A DNA stretch of 64,000 bases from Eubacteriales bacterium (GTDB lineage Bacteria > Bacillota > Clostridia > Oscillospirales > CAG-272). The translations under genes and the position numbers were made by a program. Location: positions 6,747 to 70,746 of the forward strand of contig JAZONX010000039.1 in the NCBI GenBank assembly GCA_045654725.1, read 5' to 3'. Positions 3,447 through 35,276 of the stretch are shown here, in pieces (position 1 is the stretch's first letter; every line of letters starts with the position of its first letter). The notes under the pieces are model-generated. The model saw nothing but the letters and a program-made list of their open reading frames with translations, made no database searches and was not told where the DNA came from.

Positions 3447-3702
3447 AAAAAGTCTCCGTCTTTTATTTTACGTAAGCCTCGACATTTTAACACATTGTGA
3501 ACAAAAAGTCAATAGATGTTCATTATTTTGCTGTTTTTCGACTCATAAAACGCCTCTTTTTTGCAATTTTCGACAGTTTTATTTTGGTAAAATATACCTA
3601 AAAACGCTTATTTTTTTGGCTATTTTGAACAATGAGGTCTGAAAAAGGTGTGGTAAGCGGCCTGTTTTTTGGTTGCTTTTTATAAAATTGATGAAAATGC
3701 CA

Positions 3703-3731
3703 TTGACTAACTCAAATTTCTGTGATAAAAT
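3703..3731 (+). promoter_or_regulatory. Sigma-A-type promoter for asd
   Basis: TTGACT, 17 nt, then TAAAAT with TGn extended -10 (TGATAAAAT), about 45 nt before the asd ATG. Confidence 0.5.
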
Positions 3732-24851: not shown

Positions 24852-24925
24852 TGGCAGCGGAACTAGGATTCGAACCCAGACATACAGAGTCAGAGTCTGC
24901 TGTGCTACCTTTACACAATTCCGCT
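24852..24925 (-). tRNA. tRNA-Gln (anticodon CUG)
   Basis: Hand-folded cloverleaf on the minus strand. Acceptor AGCGGAA/TTCCGCT, anticodon stem GCAGA/TCTGT with loop CTCTGAC (anticodon CTG), T-arm CTGGG-TTCGAAT-CCTAG, discriminator G, and encoded CCA. Confidence 0.85.
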
Positions 24926-25372: not shown

Positions 25373-25993
25373 CTATCTTTGAATGAAATTTGTTCGGAAC
25401 TGATTTTCTCTTTTTGGCAATCCCAATGATTCCTTTCCTATTGCAATGCTCTTTGCAAGAAATGCGGCATTTCTGGCGAGGTTTCTCATGCACTGCATTC
25501 CCTCTTCATCAAGGGTTGCATCGTCGGCATTTGCTCCATGTACCTGATTCCAATAACTCGATGTTGCTATGGGCATACCCGAAATGCTAAAATACTTGTT
25601 TAGCACGTCAAACGTAGCCGTGCACCCTCCTCGTCTGGCACATACTACAGAAGCGCCGATTTTTCCTCGCTTTTCAAATTTTGTGCTGTAGAAGAGTCTG
25701 TCGAGGAAAGATATTAGTGTTCCCGCAGGTGCTGCGTAATAAACCGGTGAGCCGACGATCAATCCGTCAGCCTCCTCAAATTTTTTTGCGACCTCGTTTA
25801 CTTTGTCATCAAATACACATTTTCCCAGCTCGGAGCAGGTGTAACAACCTATACATCCTCTTATTGGCAGATGTCCTATGTGTATAATTTCGCTTTCGAT
25901 TCCTTCCTCGCGGAGGGTCCTTGCAACCTCGGTAAGTGCCGCATTGGTTGTTCCTGCCCCGTGAGGGCTTCCGTTGATCAACAAAAATTTCAT
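25373..25993 (-). CDS. Flavodoxin-like fold NAD(P)H-dependent FMN reductase / iron-sulfur flavoprotein family
   Basis: MKFLLINGSPHGAGTTN N-terminus and a Cys cluster CIGCYTCSELGKC. Start set at ATG 25993 after GGAGG. Confidence 0.7.
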   Translation of the reverse strand: MKFLLINGSPHGAGTTNAALTEVARTLREEGIESEIIHIGHLPIRGCIGCYTCSELGKCVFDDKVNEVAKKFEEADGLIVGSPVYYAAPAGTLISFLDRLFYSTKFEKRGKIGASVVCARRGGCTATFDVLNKYFSISGMPIATSSYWNQVHGANADDATLDEEGMQCMRNLARNAAFLAKSIAIGKESLGLPKRENQFRTNFIQR

Positions 25994-26180
25994 ATATTTT
26001 CCTCCGATTTGTTTCATAATATGCTTTTCGCATTGTCTTTGATACGCCTAACGACCTCATTATAGCACATTAGACGCTTGATTTCAATTGCATTTTGCTC
26101 TGTTTGCACTATTTTGGGAGTCCGGTTTTGGTGTTTTTCACAAAATTTACAAAAAATTAATAAAAAAAATTAACTTCTAC

Positions 26181-26209: not shown

Positions 26210-26383
26210 AGTCACGTGAATCGTATATATACGCGCATTATTTGTATATAACATTGAGCGCGATTTATTGCAAGATTTCCAAGACGTGCAGTGCTAGGCC
26301 GCATGTAAGCAGCGGCAACTTGCTTCCCAAACATGGTCTTTTAGCCTTGAAAAGGGTTGATGGCGGAAAGGCGGTAGTTGACT

Positions 26384-27241
26384 ATGAGTGTTGTAATCGG
26401 AATTGACATAGGTGGTAGTACCACAAAAATTGTAGGTTTTTCGTGCACTGATAAGGGGTGGGAGCTTATCGAGCCGCAGATAATCAAAGCAAACGATCCG
26501 GTTACTGCAACATACGGAGCTTTTGGTAAGTTCACCGACGAAAATGGCCTGTTGATCAATGACATATCGAAGGTTATGATGACCGGTGTGGGAGCATCTC
26601 ACGTTAAAAAGAGTCTTTATGGGCTTGATTGTCATAGGGTTGCCGAGTTTGACAGTATCGGACGCGGTGGTACCTATCTTTCGAGTCTATCTGATGCCTT
26701 GGTAGTTAGTATGGGCACAGGAACCGCGATTGTCCACGCCAGAGCCGACGGAACAATGAAATATCTCGGCGGCACAGGTGTCGGCGGCGGAACGTTGATG
26801 GGACTTTCTAAGCTTCTGCTAAATGCAGAGTCAGTTGGATATATCGAGAAATATGCCGAATCCGGAAGCCTTGACAACGTCGATCTTCGTATTAAGGACA
26901 TGATTGCGTCTGACACAATCAGCCGACTCGAAGCCAATCTTACCGCATCCAATTTCGGTAAGCTCGATGATGCGGCGAGCAAGGCGGACGTTGCTCTTGG
27001 CATAATGAATCTCGTCTTTGAGACGGTGGGAATGATCTCTGTTTTTGCCGCAAAATCTGTTGGCGCAAAGAACGTAATACTCACAGGTAACGTCACAAGG
27101 CTTGAGCACTGCAAGCGTAAATTCGAGGAATTTAATAACCTTGAGGTGGCGCGCGGACTTAACTTCGTAATTCCCGAGCGTGCACGATTTGCTACTGCGA
27201 TCGGCGCCGCAATTATTGGAATCCAGCGAGGTGACGAATGA
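26384..27241 (+). CDS. coaW: Type II pantothenate kinase-like ASKHA ATPase
   Basis: GIDIGGSTTKIVGF phosphate-1 motif and GGTGVGGGTLMGLSKLLL, as in type II PanK. An assignment to another ASKHA family cannot be excluded. Confidence 0.6.
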   Translation: MSVVIGIDIGGSTTKIVGFSCTDKGWELIEPQIIKANDPVTATYGAFGKFTDENGLLINDISKVMMTGVGASHVKKSLYGLDCHRVAEFDSIGRGGTYLSSLSDALVVSMGTGTAIVHARADGTMKYLGGTGVGGGTLMGLSKLLLNAESVGYIEKYAESGSLDNVDLRIKDMIASDTISRLEANLTASNFGKLDDAASKADVALGIMNLVFETVGMISVFAAKSVGAKNVILTGNVTRLEHCKRKFEEFNNLEVARGLNFVIPERARFATAIGAAIIGIQRGDE

Positions 27242-27660
27242 ATATAATGCGCTTTGTCGTGCCCAAAAGCTTGGTTGAATACGTAACCGTGGATAGCACG
27301 ATACGTCAGGCTTTTGAGAAAATGCGTTTCCATAGATACGTTGCAATTCCCGTTATTGACGGAGAAGGTCGCTACGTTGGAACGCTTCGTAATGATGACA
27401 TTTTCGAATACTTCCTGCAGGTGGGCAGCTTCGACACCCACAACGCAGAGAGGGATAACGTTGTTGATATAATTGATAAAAAACGCTCTACACCTTTGTA
27501 TCACGATGCATCGATGGATGAGCTTATCGAGCGTGTCTGCGAGCATAATTTTGTTCCCGTTGTGGACGACAGAGGATGCTTTGTTGGAATAATTTTGCGA
27601 AAAGACATACTCAATTTTCTATTCAAAAAATATAAAAATGACATAAAGGGGGGGAATTGA
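27238..27660 (+). CDS. CBS-domain pair protein
   Basis: ATGA overlap with the coaW stop. Two CBS-like units (HRYVAIPVIDGEGRYVGTL; HNFVPVVDDRGCFVGIIL). Confidence 0.8.
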   Translation: MNIMRFVVPKSLVEYVTVDSTIRQAFEKMRFHRYVAIPVIDGEGRYVGTLRNDDIFEYFLQVGSFDTHNAERDNVVDIIDKKRSTPLYHDASMDELIERVCEHNFVPVVDDRGCFVGIILRKDILNFLFKKYKNDIKGGN

Positions 27661-30600
27661 TGGCAGACAAAGAAAAAAACATGCCGATACATGATCCCGA
27701 CAATCATGAAAATGAAATACTGAACCATCAGCCGTCTTCAACGGAAGAACTTCCCGAAGCGGATGCAGGTGCGTCGGTTGTAAACAACCCCGAAGAATCG
27801 GAGGTTACATCCAACGAACCTAAGTTGCCCGTTCAGGAAGCAGAGGTTGTAAACGAGCCTGCTGAGGAGCAGATCGAGCCCACCGAAGAAGTAGTTGGTT
27901 CCGAGGAGGTTGAGTCACCCGCGGAGGAAACTCCCGAGGTTGAATCTTCCGAAGAGGCAGCTGCTACGGAGGAGGTATCCGAGCCCGAGGCGATTGAGGA
28001 GGCGGAGCCTGTTTCGGAGGAAGAAGTTCCGGAAGCAGAGCCTGCTTCAGAGGAAGAAATCCCCGAAGAAGAGACTACCGAAGAGCCGCTTGTCGAGAGC
28101 GACGATGAGGTTGCTGAAGAACCGCTTGCCGAGAGCAATGAGGAAGCTCCTATCGATGGGGATGAACAACCCGAGGGCGAGTTCACCGAGAGCGATTGGA
28201 ACGAGGAAGACGAGCTCGAAGATGACACCGATTCAGAGGATGAAGACGACTCGTTTGACGAGAATCTTACCATTGAAATTGACGCTGACGGAATCGTAAC
28301 CACCAATGGTGTTGCCGAGGATGATGACTCCGAGAACTTCGTTAATGACGAAGAAGAGAAGGAGATCGATCCCGAGGATCTCGTGATTTACGATGAGGTT
28401 ATAAAGGCTATCAAATCAGAGGGTGAGCGCCTGGTTGCAAAGGAAGAAAGTCTTAAACTCTATGCGAAGCATAGCAAGGACGCAATTAAGAACTTTGAGG
28501 CGGCTCTTAAGGTTGGTCAGCATCTGCTTGAAAGCAACCGTGACGAGAAGGAAACTCCTTCTATTTTGGCCGGTATCATCAAGATCTGCGCGCAGATCCT
28601 TGAAATCAAGTGCAACAACCTCGAGAACTACGTAAGAGTTAAGGCTTATGAGTACATCAAGCCTGCCCGCAAGGAGCTCAGCTATGAGATCGAGAGATAC
28701 AACGATTACCTGATTACATATTCTTCTTTAACCGGTGAGCAGCTGACGAGATTGTCCGCGCTCCTTCCCGAGAAGATTGCTTCAGGAAAATCTATTGCTG
28801 TGATCCCCGTTCTCTCTTACAGAGAGAGTTACGTTCAGGTCTCCGAGGATGACGAGCTTACAAGAGAGGCTGCAGCAACCCTCACCTTCATAGACCCCGT
28901 GCTCAATGCCGATGCGCTTATGGGAGAGGTTGATCCTCCTCGTACAGTGGGTGGAACTCGCCGTTACATGAGAAAGGCGAAAAAGGCCACCAAGGCACTC
29001 GGTAATGAATGTTCAAGAATAAGCAAGCTTCTCTCCCAGTCCAAGTCAGCCCGTAAGAGATTCGAAGACGAGCTCAGGGCACTTGAGGCGAGAACACCTC
29101 TTGCACAGCGTGCAACAGACGAGTACAAGAACAAGGTGTTCAAGATCGGAGTTAAGTATGGAAAGCAGCTCTCCGGCATTAAGACGCTGAAGACCAGAAA
29201 CGCCTTTGTGAGAAACAGAGTGCGCCTGATGATCAACCGTCTTGTTATCGAGAGAGAAAAGCTTGTCATCGCATACGATTGTTTGCGTGAGGCTTGTCGT
29301 GCAGGAAACAATGGTCAGAAGAGAATAGCGAGAGATTACCTGACAAAGGCGATCTTCTCCTACAATAAGTGCGCCGAGCTTTGCAGTAAGGCGGCGGGAG
29401 CGAACTTTGAGGTAATATCTCCCTTTGTTGTAGATCAGATCTACGCAGGAAAGGAAGCTTCCTTCCCAAGAATTGCTTATAAGCGCGAGCTTGTTGAGAC
29501 GGTTGGTAACACCTCCCGTTCGATTAGCATGGTGCTTCGCAATGATGTTCTTCCCGACGAACAGGCTTACGCTGAAACCTCGCAGAGAATTGTCGATAAG
29601 CATGGTAACACGGTTAACACCGCCGCACTTTCGGATGAATCGGCGATGGAGGACAGAGCATCTGCGATTGCGAAGGTAATGATTGATGCCCTTAAGGACT
29701 CGGCGGATACAGTTCTAAATGTTGATGATCTCGAGCGCTTCTCAGTTAAGGTTAACAGAGCACTCAAGTACTTCAAGAGAGCTCGCCGCAGAACCGAGAA
29801 GGCGATGGCGCGTGCCTTTGATGAAAACGGCGTTATCACCGCCTTGGTTGAAAACCTTCGCGTGATTGCCAACATAATCGAGGTAAGGCGAATCAGCATT
29901 GCTGCCGCGACCAGAATTAAGCGCAACGACATTGCGAGAAGCTACAGCAGAGCACTTTACAAAAACATTGAGCTTTATAACGGAAGAGCTATTGACTATA
30001 TGTCGATAGTTGGCGAGCAGTTCTCCCGTATCAGCATTACTCCCGTAAGAGATCTTGCTAACGGAGCAGATAAGCTTAAAGTTCCTGTTATAACATATAA
30101 AGATAATTACATAGAAGTATTTCCTAAAGATCCTCTTAAGGATTCTGTTTACGAAAAGCCCAGACTGTGGCGCTCGGGAGTTTACACGCCTCTCCTTATG
30201 AAGCACTACAGACTTACGGAAAACCGCGCTATCGAAACAACGGTTGTTAACTCGCCCTTCGTATTTGACGTTATGACCGATGATATGCCGGCTGTTTCCT
30301 GGTGGCACCCCATAGGAATTTGGCAGCACCTGATGGTATGGGCGCAGCCGATAGTTGCTTGGTGGCACAGAGTACTGACTAACGTCGAAATCTGGTTCGT
30401 AGATGAGTCGCTTGTATTCTCGAAGAGCGGACTTAAGGGCAGGGAAAGACGAAATCAAAGAAGAAAACGCAGATACGAAAGCAAGATTCGACGTTTCAAC
30501 GCCGAGCATACTGCAGCGATACTTAGACTTGAAACGGTTGTTCACGAGACCGACCGTCACACCCTTGAGTATCAGAAGAAGATCTGCAAGATTAACGAAA

Positions 30601-33266
30601 AATACAGCCGTAAGATCTATCGTTTGAAGCTTCGCTGGATGCGTGAGTGCCCCGGTAGAAACGAGGCAAGATTGATGCTTGAGCGTCTCGTTCTTGAAAG
30701 AGAGAGACTTGCCGGTATCAACAAGGTTATCCTCAAGTACAGAAACTACGGCAGAATCACCTTTACTCGCAATATTCTTGTTAAATATAAGAAGAAATTC
30801 ATTGAAGCAATAACCGCGCACAACAACACCGCCGAGAAGCTTTCTGAACTTATTGGCGTTAAGTTGTCGCAGGTATCGACCTCGGTTGCAGAAGAGATCA
30901 TAAGATATGGTAATATGATCAAGTTCCCCGAGATCGTATGCTGCAGAGAGGTTATTGAAACCATCGATGGCAAGAATAGAACCGTTGGCGACAGATGGCA
31001 CGGATACGGTCTTTACACCGGAACCTCCGACTCCGCTTCGTCTAATGCGAATGCACCTGTTATGTCTGTTGGCGCTATGGGTTACGCGACTGATATGGGC
31101 GTTCCTTTCCTTAAGAGCGACACTAACGGCATGACAATGATCGGTATGACTCCCGGCGGAGTTCCTCTCATTGGATTTAACTCCACAGGCGAGACTTCCA
31201 TACCCTTCACCGGTACACCTATGATGCTCTCCGGCTCGGATATCTCCGTGGTACTTGACGCCGGCAGAGAAGGTCAGGATACGATGATCCTTGGCGCAGC
31301 CGATGCGACCGATCCTTACTCCGGCCTCAATCAGCGTGGTGTTGATGCAAGATATACAGACGACCTTGAAGAAGATGCAAAGGATCTCCACTCGGGTTGC
31401 GAGGTCGAGACTCCCCTTGATCTTCAGTCGAAGATGATAGAAGAAAGATTTACCAGAGCACTCCGCGCAAGAGCAATGACGTCGATTGACAACGTCAGAA
31501 ACTGGTGGAAGCTCGTTGGTAGCGAAATCAACGTTTGGATTATGAGAAAACTTCTCATAAGACCTCGCGGATTCCTCCAGATCCTTCTTCCTCCGAGAGA
31601 TTTCTATATTGAAAACGTAAACACAAAGGTTAGCGTTCAGGATGTAATCTCTCTTGAGAGAATTTCGACGGTTGGCGGTATCATCGACATAGAGTGCAAG
31701 AGACTCTATTCGGCTACTAAGACCGGAGTTAGACGTTCGCAGAGAAAGTTCAGCGCATGGCTCCATGAGGACATTGATCTTTACAACCAGCTTGTAAAGA
31801 CCTACAACAAGAATCATCCTCGCCACATGCACATCGAGCTTCTTTCCTTCAACATCCCGGATACGATCAGATTCAGACGAGAGGATCTTCCTCCCGCGCC
31901 TCCCGTTTTCAGCATGCGCAACAGAGTTAAGCTTCAAGAGGACGCTACGCCAATCTTGACTAAGGATCTGTTGGAAAGCCTTGTTGAATATGCCAAGAAG
32001 GCAACGTTTAGACACAAAGGTCTGATAGGAATAATTTGGGCTAAGCTTGTTACAGTTCCTCTTCTTAATCTCGAGATGCGTCTCGGATTACGCGGCAAAG
32101 CTCTTAAGAGAGTTAAGCGTATGATTGGTAAGAGATCTAACAGAGCTTATGCTTACCGTCAGGAAAACGAAGCAAGACATTACCGAATCAGATACGAAAA
32201 GGCTCGTTCAATGAAGCGCTATAACAGACGTACTCTGCGCGCTATCGGACTTGCGAACGATCCTATCAAGTATCAGGAAAAGGTACACAAGGTTCTTCGC
32301 AGACACCTGACTCAGATCTTCCGAATCGACTACAATATGCGTATACGCCAGCTCATCTACAGAGCGATGAGAGTTCAAAAAGAACTCTACTGGATTGTTA
32401 CCGCGGCACTTGCGGCGGTTACGGTTATCGTATCGTTAACACCCGTAGATATGAGAGCGTTGCAGACGCTTGTATTTGTCGGTGTCGTTTGGGCAGCATT
32501 GCCTATCATCCTCGCATTGCTCAGACTTGTTTACTCGATTGTTCTGTTGGTAGTAAGTATCGTGCTTCTGCTTACACGAAACATCTGGCTTATCAAGTAT
32601 GGTGCAAGAGACGTTGAGCGAAACCGCTATGGCGCGATTCTCGACTGCTTCGTAACAGAGCAGTATAGATTGCTCGTGGCTTGTGAAAGAGTTCATCAGA
32701 AGCCCAGAAGCCATAAGGCAAGAAAGATTCTTATTGCAGCGGTTAATGATTTCAACAAGCGTTCGACCGTTTATTCCGAAATTCTCAGAATTCCGATTAA
32801 GCAGATTGAAATTACAGGGCTCCTCGAGAAGCTTACAACCGAAGGCTCTCACCGTCTTGTTGAACTTCAGAACTTCGTATACGTAAGAGAGCTTGTCGAG
32901 CGCGTTGACAGACGTCAGAGAGGTAAGACCCTCACAGACAGAGAGTACGCCACACTTTCAGGTGAGATTAACCAGGTTATCAATCTCATCAACCTCAGAA
33001 GCAGCGAGAGTGATCCCGCCGTTCAGTTCCTTAGAACAAAGATGGAGGATCTTGCTAACCGCATCCGCAACAGAGATATTAAGCTCACTCAGAATGAGAG
33101 ATTTGAGCTTAAGAGAGATCTCATTGAAGGCGCGATGAATCTTCAGCTTGAGGCAGGCGAATTCGAAATATTTGCAAAGAACGTCATAACGATCGTAGAT
33201 CACATCGGCGGTAAGGATAGCCGCAGAATTATTGGTGTTCTTGCATCGGATGATATGATCATCTAA
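27660..33266 (+). CDS. Giant (1,868 aa) uncharacterised repeat-containing membrane protein
   Basis: The ATG overlaps the CBS-gene TGA (TGATG) and is preceded by a G-rich SD. The ORF is uninterrupted. It has an acidic E/P-rich N-terminal ~220 aa, six copies of a ~95-aa module, a Trp-rich segment and three hydrophobic helices near residue ~1580-1650. No catalytic motif recognised. Confidence 0.8.
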   Translation: MADKEKNMPIHDPDNHENEILNHQPSSTEELPEADAGASVVNNPEESEVTSNEPKLPVQEAEVVNEPAEEQIEPTEEVVGSEEVESPAEETPEVESSEEAAATEEVSEPEAIEEAEPVSEEEVPEAEPASEEEIPEEETTEEPLVESDDEVAEEPLAESNEEAPIDGDEQPEGEFTESDWNEEDELEDDTDSEDEDDSFDENLTIEIDADGIVTTNGVAEDDDSENFVNDEEEKEIDPEDLVIYDEVIKAIKSEGERLVAKEESLKLYAKHSKDAIKNFEAALKVGQHLLESNRDEKETPSILAGIIKICAQILEIKCNNLENYVRVKAYEYIKPARKELSYEIERYNDYLITYSSLTGEQLTRLSALLPEKIASGKSIAVIPVLSYRESYVQVSEDDELTREAAATLTFIDPVLNADALMGEVDPPRTVGGTRRYMRKAKKATKALGNECSRISKLLSQSKSARKRFEDELRALEARTPLAQRATDEYKNKVFKIGVKYGKQLSGIKTLKTRNAFVRNRVRLMINRLVIEREKLVIAYDCLREACRAGNNGQKRIARDYLTKAIFSYNKCAELCSKAAGANFEVISPFVVDQIYAGKEASFPRIAYKRELVETVGNTSRSISMVLRNDVLPDEQAYAETSQRIVDKHGNTVNTAALSDESAMEDRASAIAKVMIDALKDSADTVLNVDDLERFSVKVNRALKYFKRARRRTEKAMARAFDENGVITALVENLRVIANIIEVRRISIAAATRIKRNDIARSYSRALYKNIELYNGRAIDYMSIVGEQFSRISITPVRDLANGADKLKVPVITYKDNYIEVFPKDPLKDSVYEKPRLWRSGVYTPLLMKHYRLTENRAIETTVVNSPFVFDVMTDDMPAVSWWHPIGIWQHLMVWAQPIVAWWHRVLTNVEIWFVDESLVFSKSGLKGRERRNQRRKRRYESKIRRFNAEHTAAILRLETVVHETDRHTLEYQKKICKINEKYSRKIYRLKLRWMRECPGRNEARLMLERLVLERERLAGINKVILKYRNYGRITFTRNILVKYKKKFIEAITAHNNTAEKLSELIGVKLSQVSTSVAEEIIRYGNMIKFPEIVCCREVIETIDGKNRTVGDRWHGYGLYTGTSDSASSNANAPVMSVGAMGYATDMGVPFLKSDTNGMTMIGMTPGGVPLIGFNSTGETSIPFTGTPMMLSGSDISVVLDAGREGQDTMILGAADATDPYSGLNQRGVDARYTDDLEEDAKDLHSGCEVETPLDLQSKMIEERFTRALRARAMTSIDNVRNWWKLVGSEINVWIMRKLLIRPRGFLQILLPPRDFYIENVNTKVSVQDVISLERISTVGGIIDIECKRLYSATKTGVRRSQRKFSAWLHEDIDLYNQLVKTYNKNHPRHMHIELLSFNIPDTIRFRREDLPPAPPVFSMRNRVKLQEDATPILTKDLLESLVEYAKKATFRHKGLIGIIWAKLVTVPLLNLEMRLGLRGKALKRVKRMIGKRSNRAYAYRQENEARHYRIRYEKARSMKRYNRRTLRAIGLANDPIKYQEKVHKVLRRHLTQIFRIDYNMRIRQLIYRAMRVQKELYWIVTAALAAVTVIVSLTPVDMRALQTLVFVGVVWAALPIILALLRLVYSIVLLVVSIVLLLTRNIWLIKYGARDVERNRYGAILDCFVTEQYRLLVACERVHQKPRSHKARKILIAAVNDFNKRSTVYSEILRIPIKQIEITGLLEKLTTEGSHRLVELQNFVYVRELVERVDRRQRGKTLTDREYATLSGEINQVINLINLRSSESDPAVQFLRTKMEDLANRIRNRDIKLTQNERFELKRDLIEGAMNLQLEAGEFEIFAKNVITIVDHIGGKDSRRIIGVLASDDMII

Positions 33267-33316
33267 ACTAATTGGTTTTAAGTAAATTAAATAAAAAACA
33301 AAAAAATAAATTTGAA

Positions 33317-33333
33317 GGGGGCAGGAGGCCCCC
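33317..33333 (+). promoter_or_regulatory. GC hairpin immediately 5' of the SD of the 522-aa gene
   Basis: GGGGGC-AGGAG-GCCCCC, directly followed by SD GGAAGGAG and then ATG 33349. Confidence 0.4.
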
Positions 33334-33348
33334 GGAAGGAGAATTACA

Positions 33349-34917
33349 ATGAGTAAAGTACAGCAGACCAGAGTAGAACTTCTTGTTGAAAGCATCGCTG
33401 TGGAGAAGCAGATTCTTATCGAAATCTGTGACGATCTTGCAGCTCACCGCGACACCGGTAACAAGAAGGCAGCTAAGGAGGCAAAGAAGAACCTCAACGC
33501 ACAGATCAAGAGATACAACAGCCTTGTATCCGATTACAACAAGGTATCTGGCGAGAAGGTTGCAGGCGTTTCCTATGATCTTCCCGAGGAGATCCTTGCA
33601 GGAAGCAACAACTACGGCATCGCTACAGTTGGCACTCCCGTAGCATCCACCGCAAACGCATACAATGCGAACATCAGAATTCTTGACCAGAAAGAGCTCA
33701 AGAAGTACCTCAACAAGAGCGACAAGGCACTTGACAACGTTAAGACCAGACTTGAAGCTACTTGCAAGCAGAAGGACGAGGCAACCGGTTACAACAAGGT
33801 TCTCCTCATCATCAACTGCCTCACATATCAGAGATATGTAATCGAGAGACTCGCTGAGAATCTCCACGTTTGCAACAAGCTCTCTGACAAGAGAGTTAAG
33901 TCCATCAAGAAGGCTCTTGCAGAGGCTATCAAGGGCTACAACAAGTTCGTTGACGAGTACGAGGCTCTTACCAGAAGCCGTCTTACCCGTGCATCCGAGT
34001 CTATTCCCGAGGATATTCTCGCAGGTAAGCCCTATTCTCCCATTCCCGCAATCTCTTACACCGCTAACGATGGCACCGCTAGAAACAGCGACGCTGACGT
34101 AGCAGCAGTTGCAGCAGTTGCAGTAGCAGACCTTGAGGGCGCAAGAGCTAAGAAGAAGCACGCTAAGAAGAACAAGGAAGTTGTTAGAAAGTCCGCACTT
34201 GAGGAGAAGGTTGTAGAGCAGGCTAACAAGGATATCGCAGTTATCGCAAAGCACTACGACTTCAGAATTAGCATGATCGAGAGCGAGAAGGATATGACCG
34301 CTTACAGATTCGGTTATAACACCTTCGACACCAAGAAGCTCAAGAAGGCTACTAACGAGAAGATCAAGAAGGTTCAGAAGGCTAACAAGGAAGCTCTCAA
34401 GTATGAGGAGAAGGATAACGCACGTTACTACGCAGTTATCACCAACGATCCTGCAACTATGAAGGCTAAGCGTCGTGCTAATAGAGTTAAGATCGCATCC
34501 CTTCGTACCCAGATGATGACCCTTCTTAACAAGAGAGATGAGCTTAACAGCAAGCTTCTCTCCATCTACAACGGCTCTGAGGTTACTCTTGACGGCGTAA
34601 GCATCAACCAGAAGTGGCGTCAGGTTAAGTCCGATGCAGCTGAGAAGTATGTAAACGGCAACAAGAAGCTCGCTAAGAAGATCGCTCGTCTTCCTGCATC
34701 CAGCGGTGAAAAGCAGAGACTCTTCGGCATTATGAACAACAGCGTAGATGCATCCTCTACTCTTGCACTTACCAAGTATCGCCTTAAGACCAAGGAATAC
34801 AGAAATGGTGAAGAGAAGAAGGCTCTTCGTAAGGACGTTAAGCACTTTGAGAAGGTTCTTAAGCAGAACAGCAAGGACATCAAGTGGGTTATCAAGAAGA
34901 TTAAGAAGCGCGCTTGA
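33349..34917 (+). CDS. Lys/Ala/Glu-rich 522-aa paralogue of the giant protein's repeat module
   Basis: Strong SD upstream. Contains two clear copies of the same module (…IKRYNSLVSDYNKVSGEKVAGVSYDLPEEILAG…; …IKGYNKFVDEYEALTRSRLTRASESIPEDILAG…). Ends at TGA 34915-34917. Confidence 0.8.
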   Translation: MSKVQQTRVELLVESIAVEKQILIEICDDLAAHRDTGNKKAAKEAKKNLNAQIKRYNSLVSDYNKVSGEKVAGVSYDLPEEILAGSNNYGIATVGTPVASTANAYNANIRILDQKELKKYLNKSDKALDNVKTRLEATCKQKDEATGYNKVLLIINCLTYQRYVIERLAENLHVCNKLSDKRVKSIKKALAEAIKGYNKFVDEYEALTRSRLTRASESIPEDILAGKPYSPIPAISYTANDGTARNSDADVAAVAAVAVADLEGARAKKKHAKKNKEVVRKSALEEKVVEQANKDIAVIAKHYDFRISMIESEKDMTAYRFGYNTFDTKKLKKATNEKIKKVQKANKEALKYEEKDNARYYAVITNDPATMKAKRRANRVKIASLRTQMMTLLNKRDELNSKLLSIYNGSEVTLDGVSINQKWRQVKSDAAEKYVNGNKKLAKKIARLPASSGEKQRLFGIMNNSVDASSTLALTKYRLKTKEYRNGEEKKALRKDVKHFEKVLKQNSKDIKWVIKKIKKRA

Positions 34918-35067
34918 AGGTTACGTAACACGTTCTGGTGGGTGGCACTTTATCTGCTACTGCTCCTAGGCGGAGCCGGACTCGCTTTGCTGTATTTTGC
35001 AGCAAGTAGCGCAGAGCTTACAGCTCTAATCAATGAATTTATTAATAATTACGGAGGATTAATATAA
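34918..35067 (+). other. 49-codon open extension in frame with the 522-aa ORF beyond its TGA; encodes a TM helix
   Basis: Translation: RLRNTFWWVALYLLLLLGGAGLALLYFAASSAELTALINEFINNYGGLI-stop. Its TAA (35065-35067) overlaps the ATG of the next gene (TAATG). No convincing independent SD/start. Confidence 0.5.
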
Positions 35068-35276
35068 TGGCTAAGAAGAGAAAGTCCGCAGGCATTGCAC
35101 AGACTGAGGCAATCAAGACTCGTGCAGGCATGGCTGAAAAGCTTGAAAAGGAAAGACTTGAACTCAAGAAAGAAATGGAAGCAATCATGAAGAAGTATGC
35201 TAAGGCAACCGGTCAGAGAAAGCTCGGTCAGCGTAAGCATAAGGTTGGTAAGGCTCCCAACGACTACAGAGCATAA
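35067..35276 (+). CDS. Small (69 aa) highly basic helical protein
   Basis: GGAGG SD 8 nt upstream. Sequence: MAKKRKSAGIAQTEAIKTR...KLGQRKHKVGKAPNDYRA. No recognisable family. Confidence 0.6.
   Translation: MAKKRKSAGIAQTEAIKTRAGMAEKLEKERLELKKEMEAIMKKYAKATGQRKLGQRKHKVGKAPNDYRA

Follow-up and report, generated by a model that had tools for sequence, protein, structure and literature searches.

In the 64,000-nucleotide stretch of contig JAZONX010000039.1 analysed here (the window), which derives from an Eubacteriales bacterium of the CAG-272 lineage, two neighbouring genes encode a giant protein, G, and a 522-amino acid (aa) protein, P, and between them these proteins carry eight copies of one repeated domain. 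On balance, we favour the explanation that the repeat is an undescribed helical domain of a tail-anchored protein family, that the family gene is split into G and P in the window, and that its products make up a membrane-tethered cytoplasmic rod or scaffold. That the eight repeats (G1 to G6 in G, P1 and P2 in P; Table 1) are genuine homologous copies of one domain is confirmed by the comparisons described below.

The original prediction, made from the DNA letters and their translations, had placed six such segments in G and two in P. All eight proved to be in frame within 1-2 nt, the peptides quoted for them are present, and their homology is borne out by shuffle z scores as well as by leave-one-out profiles. 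In pairwise Smith-Waterman comparisons scored against 200 shuffles, G1, G3, P1 and P2 are mutually related (z 6-23) and G2 pairs with G4 (z 17.5); G5 is linked to the others via G3 (z 8) and P1 (z 9), and G6 via G4 (z 5.9) and P2 (z 4.2). When each copy was scored with a profile hidden Markov model (HMM) built from the other seven, six copies obtained 56-72 bits, G5 25.2 and G6 24.0, as against a ceiling of 17.9 bits or less for the best of 1000 composition-matched shuffles per sequence. The motif proposed earlier agrees with the family consensus ...KKALSEEIKEYNALVDEYEKLTGEKLTRASASLPDDILAGKGYAPIPKISY derived from 369 instances, in which the tyrosine and the asparagine are each conserved in 85%. 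As also anticipated, there is no nucleotide-level repeat of module length, and only matches of 18-33 nt are found, at codons of the conserved motif.

It could be argued that the similarity among modules is convergent, reflecting amphipathic-helix or coiled-coil composition in charged, K/E-rich proteins rather than common descent. G and P are indeed highly charged and helical, sequences of that type yield spurious alignments, and several pairwise comparisons involving G5 or G6 give low scores (z<2 for G5-G6, G4-G5 and G1-G6). We consider this reading almost certainly wrong, and a compositional artefact was ruled out by the leave-one-out scores (24-72 bits, where composition-matched shuffles reach 18 at most), by the specificity of the module profile, which recovers only 153 of 1.84 billion proteins and not coiled coils in general, and by module orthology that is position-specific across 29%-identical relatives. 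Moreover, the best-conserved positions include a Tyr-Asn pair and the non-helical tail LPxxI..G...PxIxY.

The unit is longer than first thought. A repeat of about 95 residues had been described, and this segment stands as helices 2 and 3 plus the tail; the true length is about 135-140 aa, as a further N-terminal helix lies upstream of the earlier segments in G1-G4 and P2 and is missing or diverged in G5, G6 and P1. The profile accordingly covers about 148 residues in G1-G4 and P2 and about 100-115 in G5, G6 and P1, and the module model obtained after iteration on family members has 139 positions. Structure prediction of a single module, which the original prediction had proposed, was carried out with AlphaFold2 (AF2) on the eight-copy alignment and returned a helical bundle with a predicted local distance difference test (pLDDT) score of 84 and a predicted template modelling (pTM) score of 0.79. 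The predicted fold is a three-helix bundle (helices at positions 10-40, 43-73 and 79-104) after which come a short helix (115-120) and a small beta hairpin (strands 132-134 and 140-142). In the AF2 model of full-length P (pLDDT 82), P2 has the same elements as the single-module model, and P1 has two long helices and a short helix. The strongest family-wide signals are the Tyr-Asn pair of helix 3 and the hydrophobic positions of the LPxxIxxG...PxIxY tail, and the modules are mildly basic.

The repeat could have turned out to be an already described domain. No Pfam model scored above noise for the modules or for 20 whole proteins: G and P gave no family at E<=1 except noise at 0.09-0.12, the eight modules searched singly reached a best E of 0.0097, far below cut-offs, and 18 distant members had no recurrent match. 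Scans of G and P against NCBIfam, PHROGs and PADLOC found no family either. Among PDB sequences, P had 0 matches at E<=1 by phmmer, and the best match of the module profile was tropomyosin (E 0.039), which we attribute to coiled-coil composition. Foldseek comparison of the module model with PDB (best E 0.34) and BFVD (best E 0.22) and of the full P model with PDB (best E 0.57) gave nothing closer; for the module these were generic helical bundles only. The best of them (6nps, 8gji and 8xyv; de novo or generic three-helix bundles and a GH115 C-terminal helical domain) share the up-down-up bundle at template modelling scores of 0.49-0.61 over 90-115 columns, with E 0.3-1.1 and identities of 13-20%; this fold is very common, and there is no sign of common descent. 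A literature search for a described family of this architecture returned nothing relevant, cluster look-ups for ten family members were without names, and an exact look-up of P found no matching record. Judged by the Pfam, NCBIfam, PHROGs, PADLOC, PDB and Foldseek comparisons, the module thus appears to be a previously undescribed domain family, and what is new here is this family of domains, together with its unusual architecture, and not the kind of fold.

P had originally been regarded as a paralogue of G. This did not hold: P corresponds to the C-terminal portion of what is an undivided gene in relatives such as P0012, a protein of 2247 aa with seven modules, a basic C-terminal region (CTR) and an anchor, encoded by one gene at its locus. 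Single-gene relatives of 2247-2865 aa are colinear with G followed by P; residues 357-1622 of P0012 align with G 240-1558 (29% identity, E 8.5e-144) and residues 1728-2188 with P 59-506 (40% identity, E 9e-95). The CTR is absent from G-type giants, and G precedes P wherever both types co-occur (the window, L002 and L012). Orthologues of G, with 60-62% identity, were found in L001 and L002, the only two loci returned by the G search, and the L001 contig ends just after G. The simplest reading is that fission of one ancestral gene gave rise to G and P, and hence that the eight copies would represent one ancestral array that was split.

The claim that the module is an old domain family and not the product of recent duplication was upheld. 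The same-numbered modules of 29%-identical relatives are closer matches to G1-G5 than the neighbouring modules of G itself, so that the array predates these lineages: all five score best against the same-numbered modules of P0012 and P0017, and for P0015 this holds for four of them, the exception being G2, which scores 188 against module 4 of that protein and 164 against its module 2. For P2 the best score is with the last module of P0012, yet with module 1 in P0015 and P0017; on these alignments it appears to be the orthologue of the last module of single-gene relatives. Furthermore, G1, G3 and G5 match modules 1, 3 and 5, and G2, G4 and G6 match modules 2, 4 and 6. The modules therefore alternate between two ancient subtypes in the order A-B-A-B-A-B, and the array is an old (A-B)n super-repeat.

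Searching metagenomic and genomic proteins with an HMM from the eight copies, as had been suggested, delimited a small family: among 1.84 billion representative proteins, only 153 representatives were found at E<=1e-3 and 49 at E<=1e-30. Members range from about 470 to 3761 aa in length and have 1-8 module copies, with a single copy in about 80; those with named sources come from Oscillospiraceae, Eubacteriales and Clostridia metagenome-assembled genomes. When P 1-241 and P 262-522 were used as homologue queries, the only relatives retrieved were close (61-84% identical), unnamed and mostly fragmentary, and the window sequence itself is present in gut metagenomes. Most members share an acidic N-terminus, which is probably disordered, a module array, the basic CTR of about 260 aa, and a single C-terminal transmembrane segment, and they have no signal peptide. 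Of the 111 members with more than 150 aa ahead of the first module, 98% are net acidic there. The CTR, which is helical in the AF2 model of P, directly precedes the C-terminal transmembrane segment in 112 of 161 family sequences; the idea that it consists of two more degenerate modules was rejected (hhalign probability 0.8%). A transmembrane segment lies within the last 60 residues of 103 of the 131 full-length members, and not one of the 131 has a hydrophobic or signal-peptide-like segment in its first 60 residues. The 25 aa before the C-terminal transmembrane segment carry a net charge of +3.4, compared with +0.3 after it, where about 18 residues follow. The family thus belongs to the C-tail-anchored class, and its bulk is predicted from charge and hydropathy to be cytoplasmic; under the positive-inside rule, and given the C-terminal anchor and the lack of a signal peptide, the array would be a membrane-tethered cytoplasmic structure. 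Two exceptions occur in the window, where the anchor of P lies behind an in-frame TGA and the hydrophobic block of G is internal.

Giant repeat proteins of gut Firmicutes are mostly cell-surface or secreted proteins, and G might likewise be an adhesin-like protein of which the modules form extracellular stalk domains. Its giant size, tandem array, variable copy number and fast divergence would fit such a role, and, if the hydrophobic block of G has three spans, as is possible, G6 and the tail might lie outside the cell. We nevertheless find this highly improbable, as the family lacks the signal peptide of Gram-positive adhesins in all 131 members inspected, no sortase or cell-wall-anchor motif or S-layer domain appeared in the Pfam scans, the predicted fold is all-helical and not Ig-like or beta-rich, the basic residues lie on the N-terminal side of the anchor, and the N-terminal region is acidic and probably disordered. 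An origin in phages, plasmids or defence systems was also rejected, since no match was found in PHROGs, PADLOC or the phage and plasmid collections.

The relation between P and its anchor deserves separate consideration. The frame of P runs on for 49 codons past the TGA, through a transmembrane segment, and the same TGA and in-frame anchor are found in L002 (16597-16728), L008 (1281-1412) and L009 (approximately 3538-3715), with synonymous differences among the four loci. Twenty of 22 P-clade homologues terminate at the same ...KR-x position, and more distant P-type proteins (e.g. P0055 from the split locus L012) continue straight into the anchor; the tail encoded after the TGA corresponds to the tail anchor that is contiguous in these relatives. 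No start codon after the TGA is common to the loci, as the window's GTG is replaced by GTA in L002, and L008 alone has an ATG immediately following the stop. No selenocysteine-type or other conserved hairpin was found after the TGA (consensus -5.7 kcal/mol). Genome-wide recoding of TGA was rejected; TGA ends both upstream genes and therefore functions as a normal stop in this genome. One candidate explanation is programmed UGA read-through, by which P would be made both as a soluble and as a tail-anchored isoform, and a separately translated, split-off mini-anchor is the alternative candidate.

How might such a protein function? We propose, by analogy with the spectrin-like repeats of EzrA, that the modules would be rigid elements of a cytoplasmic rod or scaffold tethered to the membrane, whose length and valency they would determine, and, more loosely, that the basic CTR and the acidic N-terminus may serve as partner-binding ends. 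In the window, G would contribute modules 1-6, and P an extra partial module, the last module and the CTR, with the anchor behind the TGA. It should be noted that several observations weigh against this proposal. The fold model rests on a shallow alignment of 8 sequences, and as Foldseek gives only generic bundles, the spectrin and EzrA analogy is without structural support. The family was gathered with the module profile, so that the presence of a module in every member is true by construction. Minimal members retain exactly one module beside the CTR, a plan that hints at a specific binding or catalytic-partner role of the module and not mere spacing. Finally, three spans in the hydrophobic block would place G6 outside the cell, and the topology is deduced from charge and hydropathy only.

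EzrA of Bacillus and Staphylococcus is built of five triple-helical-bundle repeats (PMC4243239), and the module family resembles it in having tandem repeats of three helices of about 30 residues, a cytoplasmic location and a single membrane anchor, all predicted on the module side; a scaffold or ruler role is hence plausible for the family too. The three long helices typical of spectrin- and EzrA-type repeats are present in the module and P2 models, and P1 has two. A stronger version of the comparison holds that the family is a functional analogue of EzrA, that is, a spectrin-like protein, anchored in the membrane, that regulates or scaffolds the cytoskeleton of division or elongation in Clostridia, and it could draw on the linear arrangement of repeats on one anchor and on an upstream gene belonging to the ASKHA (actin-fold) superfamily. 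We regard this as quite unlikely. EzrA and spectrin are absent among the 50 best Foldseek matches, there is neither sequence similarity to EzrA nor an EzrA Pfam match, the anchor is at the C-terminus and not, as in EzrA, at the N-terminus, and the upstream ASKHA gene scores as a pantothenate kinase and not as an actin-like filament former. The module additionally has a short helix, a beta-hairpin tail and the Tyr-Asn signature, its copy number varies from 1 to 8, and the taxonomic range is another one, the family being from Oscillospiraceae-type Clostridia.

The position of the gene on the chromosome adds a further perspective. At eight related loci (L003, L004, L005/L006, L007, L010, L011 and L012; several are short contigs giving partial order), the genes present follow the order MutS_V protein (at some loci), kinase-like protein, CBS protein, family protein, a protein of about 60-80 aa, rimP, nusA, ylxR, L7Ae and infB. 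The family proteins at these loci range from 901 aa with one module to 3761 aa, and L002 has the same open reading frame (ORF) sizes in the same order, as judged by size and order alone. In the window, P is followed by a 69-aa ORF and then by rimP, nusA, ylxR, an L7Ae-family gene and infB. The family gene is thus a vertically inherited chromosomal gene of which the length and module number have changed greatly.

This setting invites comparison with YqjD, ElaB and YgaM of E. coli, C-tail-anchored proteins that hold 50S subunits at the membrane (bioRxiv 10.1101/2024.08.16.608256). As in those proteins, a signal peptide is absent, the cytoplasmic region is helical, and a single transmembrane segment is located at the extreme C-terminus; the family gene, for its part, sits beside translation and transcription genes. 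By this analogy, each module could bind a specific partner, and the array as a whole could tether ribosomes, RNA or nascent transcripts to the membrane multivalently, with the number of bound partners set by module number. The tail anchor and cytoplasmic bulk, the basic modules and the strongly basic CTR (+36), the retention of one module and the CTR in minimal members, the location just ahead of rimP-nusA-ylxR-L7Ae-infB wherever the locus is long enough to show it, and the existence of tail-anchored ribosome tethers as a precedent all speak for such a function. Even so, we hold it to be possible but unlikely: no match to DUF883, the family of YqjD, ElaB and YgaM, or to another Pfam family was found in any Pfam scan of the family, the adjacency to rimP may be simple conserved order rather than co-function, and the family gene is tightly coupled, through overlapping stop and start codons, to the kinase-like and CBS genes on its upstream side and not to rimP. 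With a size of about 100 aa, YqjD is 5-35 times smaller than the family proteins and has no counterpart to the repeat array, the acidic N-terminal region or the 260-aa CTR.

We would only tentatively, and with considerable doubt, combine these elements into a novel organiser of the bacterial cytoplasm: a membrane-tethered rod of variable length, made of 1-8 'YN' modules, by which ribosomes, RNA or another large machine would be kept at the membrane under the control of two co-transcribed gene products, a CBS protein resembling c-di-AMP binders and an ASKHA-kinase-like protein, with programmed read-through of the conserved UGA deciding between soluble and anchored P in the clade of the window.

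Table 1. Features of the window around G and P. Module subtypes and the two gene halves are as proposed in the text; bits are leave-one-out profile scores.
Feature	Position	Strand	Description
tRNA-Gln (CTG) gene	24852-24925	-	
FMN reductase-type flavoprotein gene	25373-26017	-	
Type II pantothenate kinase-like (Fumble/ASKHA) gene	26378..27241	+	stop overlaps CBS start
CBS-pair protein (CbpB-like, below cut-off)	27238..27660	+	stop overlaps G start
G, giant protein	27657..33266	+	ORF; 1869 aa; N-terminal half of split family gene
Acidic low-complexity N-terminal region of G	27657..28424	+	aa 1-256; net charge -95; no signal peptide
Module G1	28425..28868	+	aa 257-404; subtype A; full three-helix form; 68.5 bits
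Module G2	29085..29528	+	aa 477-624; subtype B; 72.1 bits
Module G3	29700..30146	+	aa 682-830; subtype A; 69.1 bits
Module G4	30531..30986	+	aa 959-1110; subtype B; 55.8 bits
Module G5	31617..31964	+	aa 1321-1436; subtype A; helix 1 not detected; 25.2 bits
Hydrophobic block in G	32382..32600	+	aa 1576-1648; 2-3 predicted transmembrane segments (Kyte-Doolittle scan)
Module G6	32589..32930	+	aa 1645-1758; subtype B; helices 2-3 and tail; 24.0 bits
P	33349..34917	+	522 aa; C-terminal half of split gene; two modules and conserved C-terminal region
Module P1	33349..33663	+	aa 1-105; begins at helix 2, no helix 1; 62.5 bits
Module P2	33667..34092	+	aa 107-248; full form; 62.1 bits
CTR (basic all-helical C-terminal region)	34135..34911	+	P aa 263-521; net charge +36
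In-frame TGA terminating P	34915..34917	+	conserved across P clade
In-frame continuation after TGA	34918..35067	+	encodes transmembrane tail RLRNTFWWVALYLLLLLGGAGLALLYFAASS...
69-aa basic protein (...YAKATG..K.GKAPNDY)	35067..35276	+	conserved; downstream of family gene in several loci

The first codon of G may be TTG 27657, which overlaps the upstream stop, or ATG 27660, one codon on, which is likelier. The acidic N-terminal region of G contains a 33-nt tandem repeat of 2.3 copies (27998-28073), and a form lacking exactly 33 nt (27997->28031) occurs on contigs from two gut RNA runs; the difference is a copy-number polymorphism of an 11-residue acidic repeat. Within the linkers of G, Trp-rich amphipathic or hydrophobic stretches, e.g. 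MPAVSWWHPIGIWQHLMVWAQPIVAWWHRV, are located at 30290-30420 (aa ~880-920) and 31500-31600 (aa ~1280-1310); these are conserved in both L001 and L002 and could be helices that bind at the membrane interface. The insert between G4 and G5 (30990-31500, aa ~1110-1280) is rich in Gly, Thr, Met and Pro, looks non-helical (…GAMGYATDMGVPFLKSDTNGMTMIGMTPGGVPLIGF…) and is conserved in the same two loci. The hydrophobic block, of 73 residues and directly followed by G6, is conserved in L001 and L002 and in P0011, P0013, P0014 and P0016; because a weak helix-1-like match lies just before it (aa 1538-1561, independent E-value 0.34), the block might be an insertion into the loop between helix 1 and helix 2 of G6.

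Among the neighbouring genes, the kinase-like gene matches Pfam Fumble (1.1e-21) and scores 227 bits against a cut-off of 234 for the NCBIfam type II pantothenate kinase, and the CBS gene matches Pfam CBS (5.7e-17) and scores 74 bits against a cut-off of 125 for NCBIfam CbpB. The kinase-like gene holds the same position in L003, L004, L005, L007 and L012, and probably in L010 as a 277-aa gene. In the window, the MutS_V gene that precedes it at other loci is absent. The stop and start codons of the kinase-like gene, the CBS gene and G overlap successively, and this trio is conserved across family loci, which suggests one operon, possibly with nucleotide or second-messenger control. Downstream, the ATG of the 69-aa protein overlaps the stop of the anchor ORF. 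Sequence homologues of this protein are found in L002, L003, L004, L005 and L007, the loci compared by sequence, and a small ORF was called in its position at every related locus that extends past the family gene; it has no match in Pfam, NCBIfam, PHROGs or PADLOC.

Contigs from three gut metatranscriptome runs cover both G and P. As these contigs were assembled from mixed strains at >=90% identity, they indicate presence in RNA libraries and not relative expression. In runs X2 and X4, depth over P (33054-34895) rises to about 170, compared with about 5-10 over G; P may be expressed more strongly, or related strains may cross-map to the C-terminal region, which is better conserved.

G is the largest gene of its neighbourhood and lies at a constant position in the chromosome, next to core genes of transcription and translation, in gut Clostridia that are abundant and mostly uncultured, and no part of the gene is represented in Pfam, NCBIfam, PHROGs or PADLOC. 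The module definition offers an annotation handle for about 150 protein clusters and brings to light an architecture rare in bacteria, in which a large C-tail-anchored protein bears a helical array that varies. The locus also raises tractable questions, such as what a copy number between 1 and 8 tunes, how the split halves cooperate, and whether UGA isoforms exist. If the idea of a scaffold or tether is true, the family would constitute a new component of cell organisation in Clostridia.

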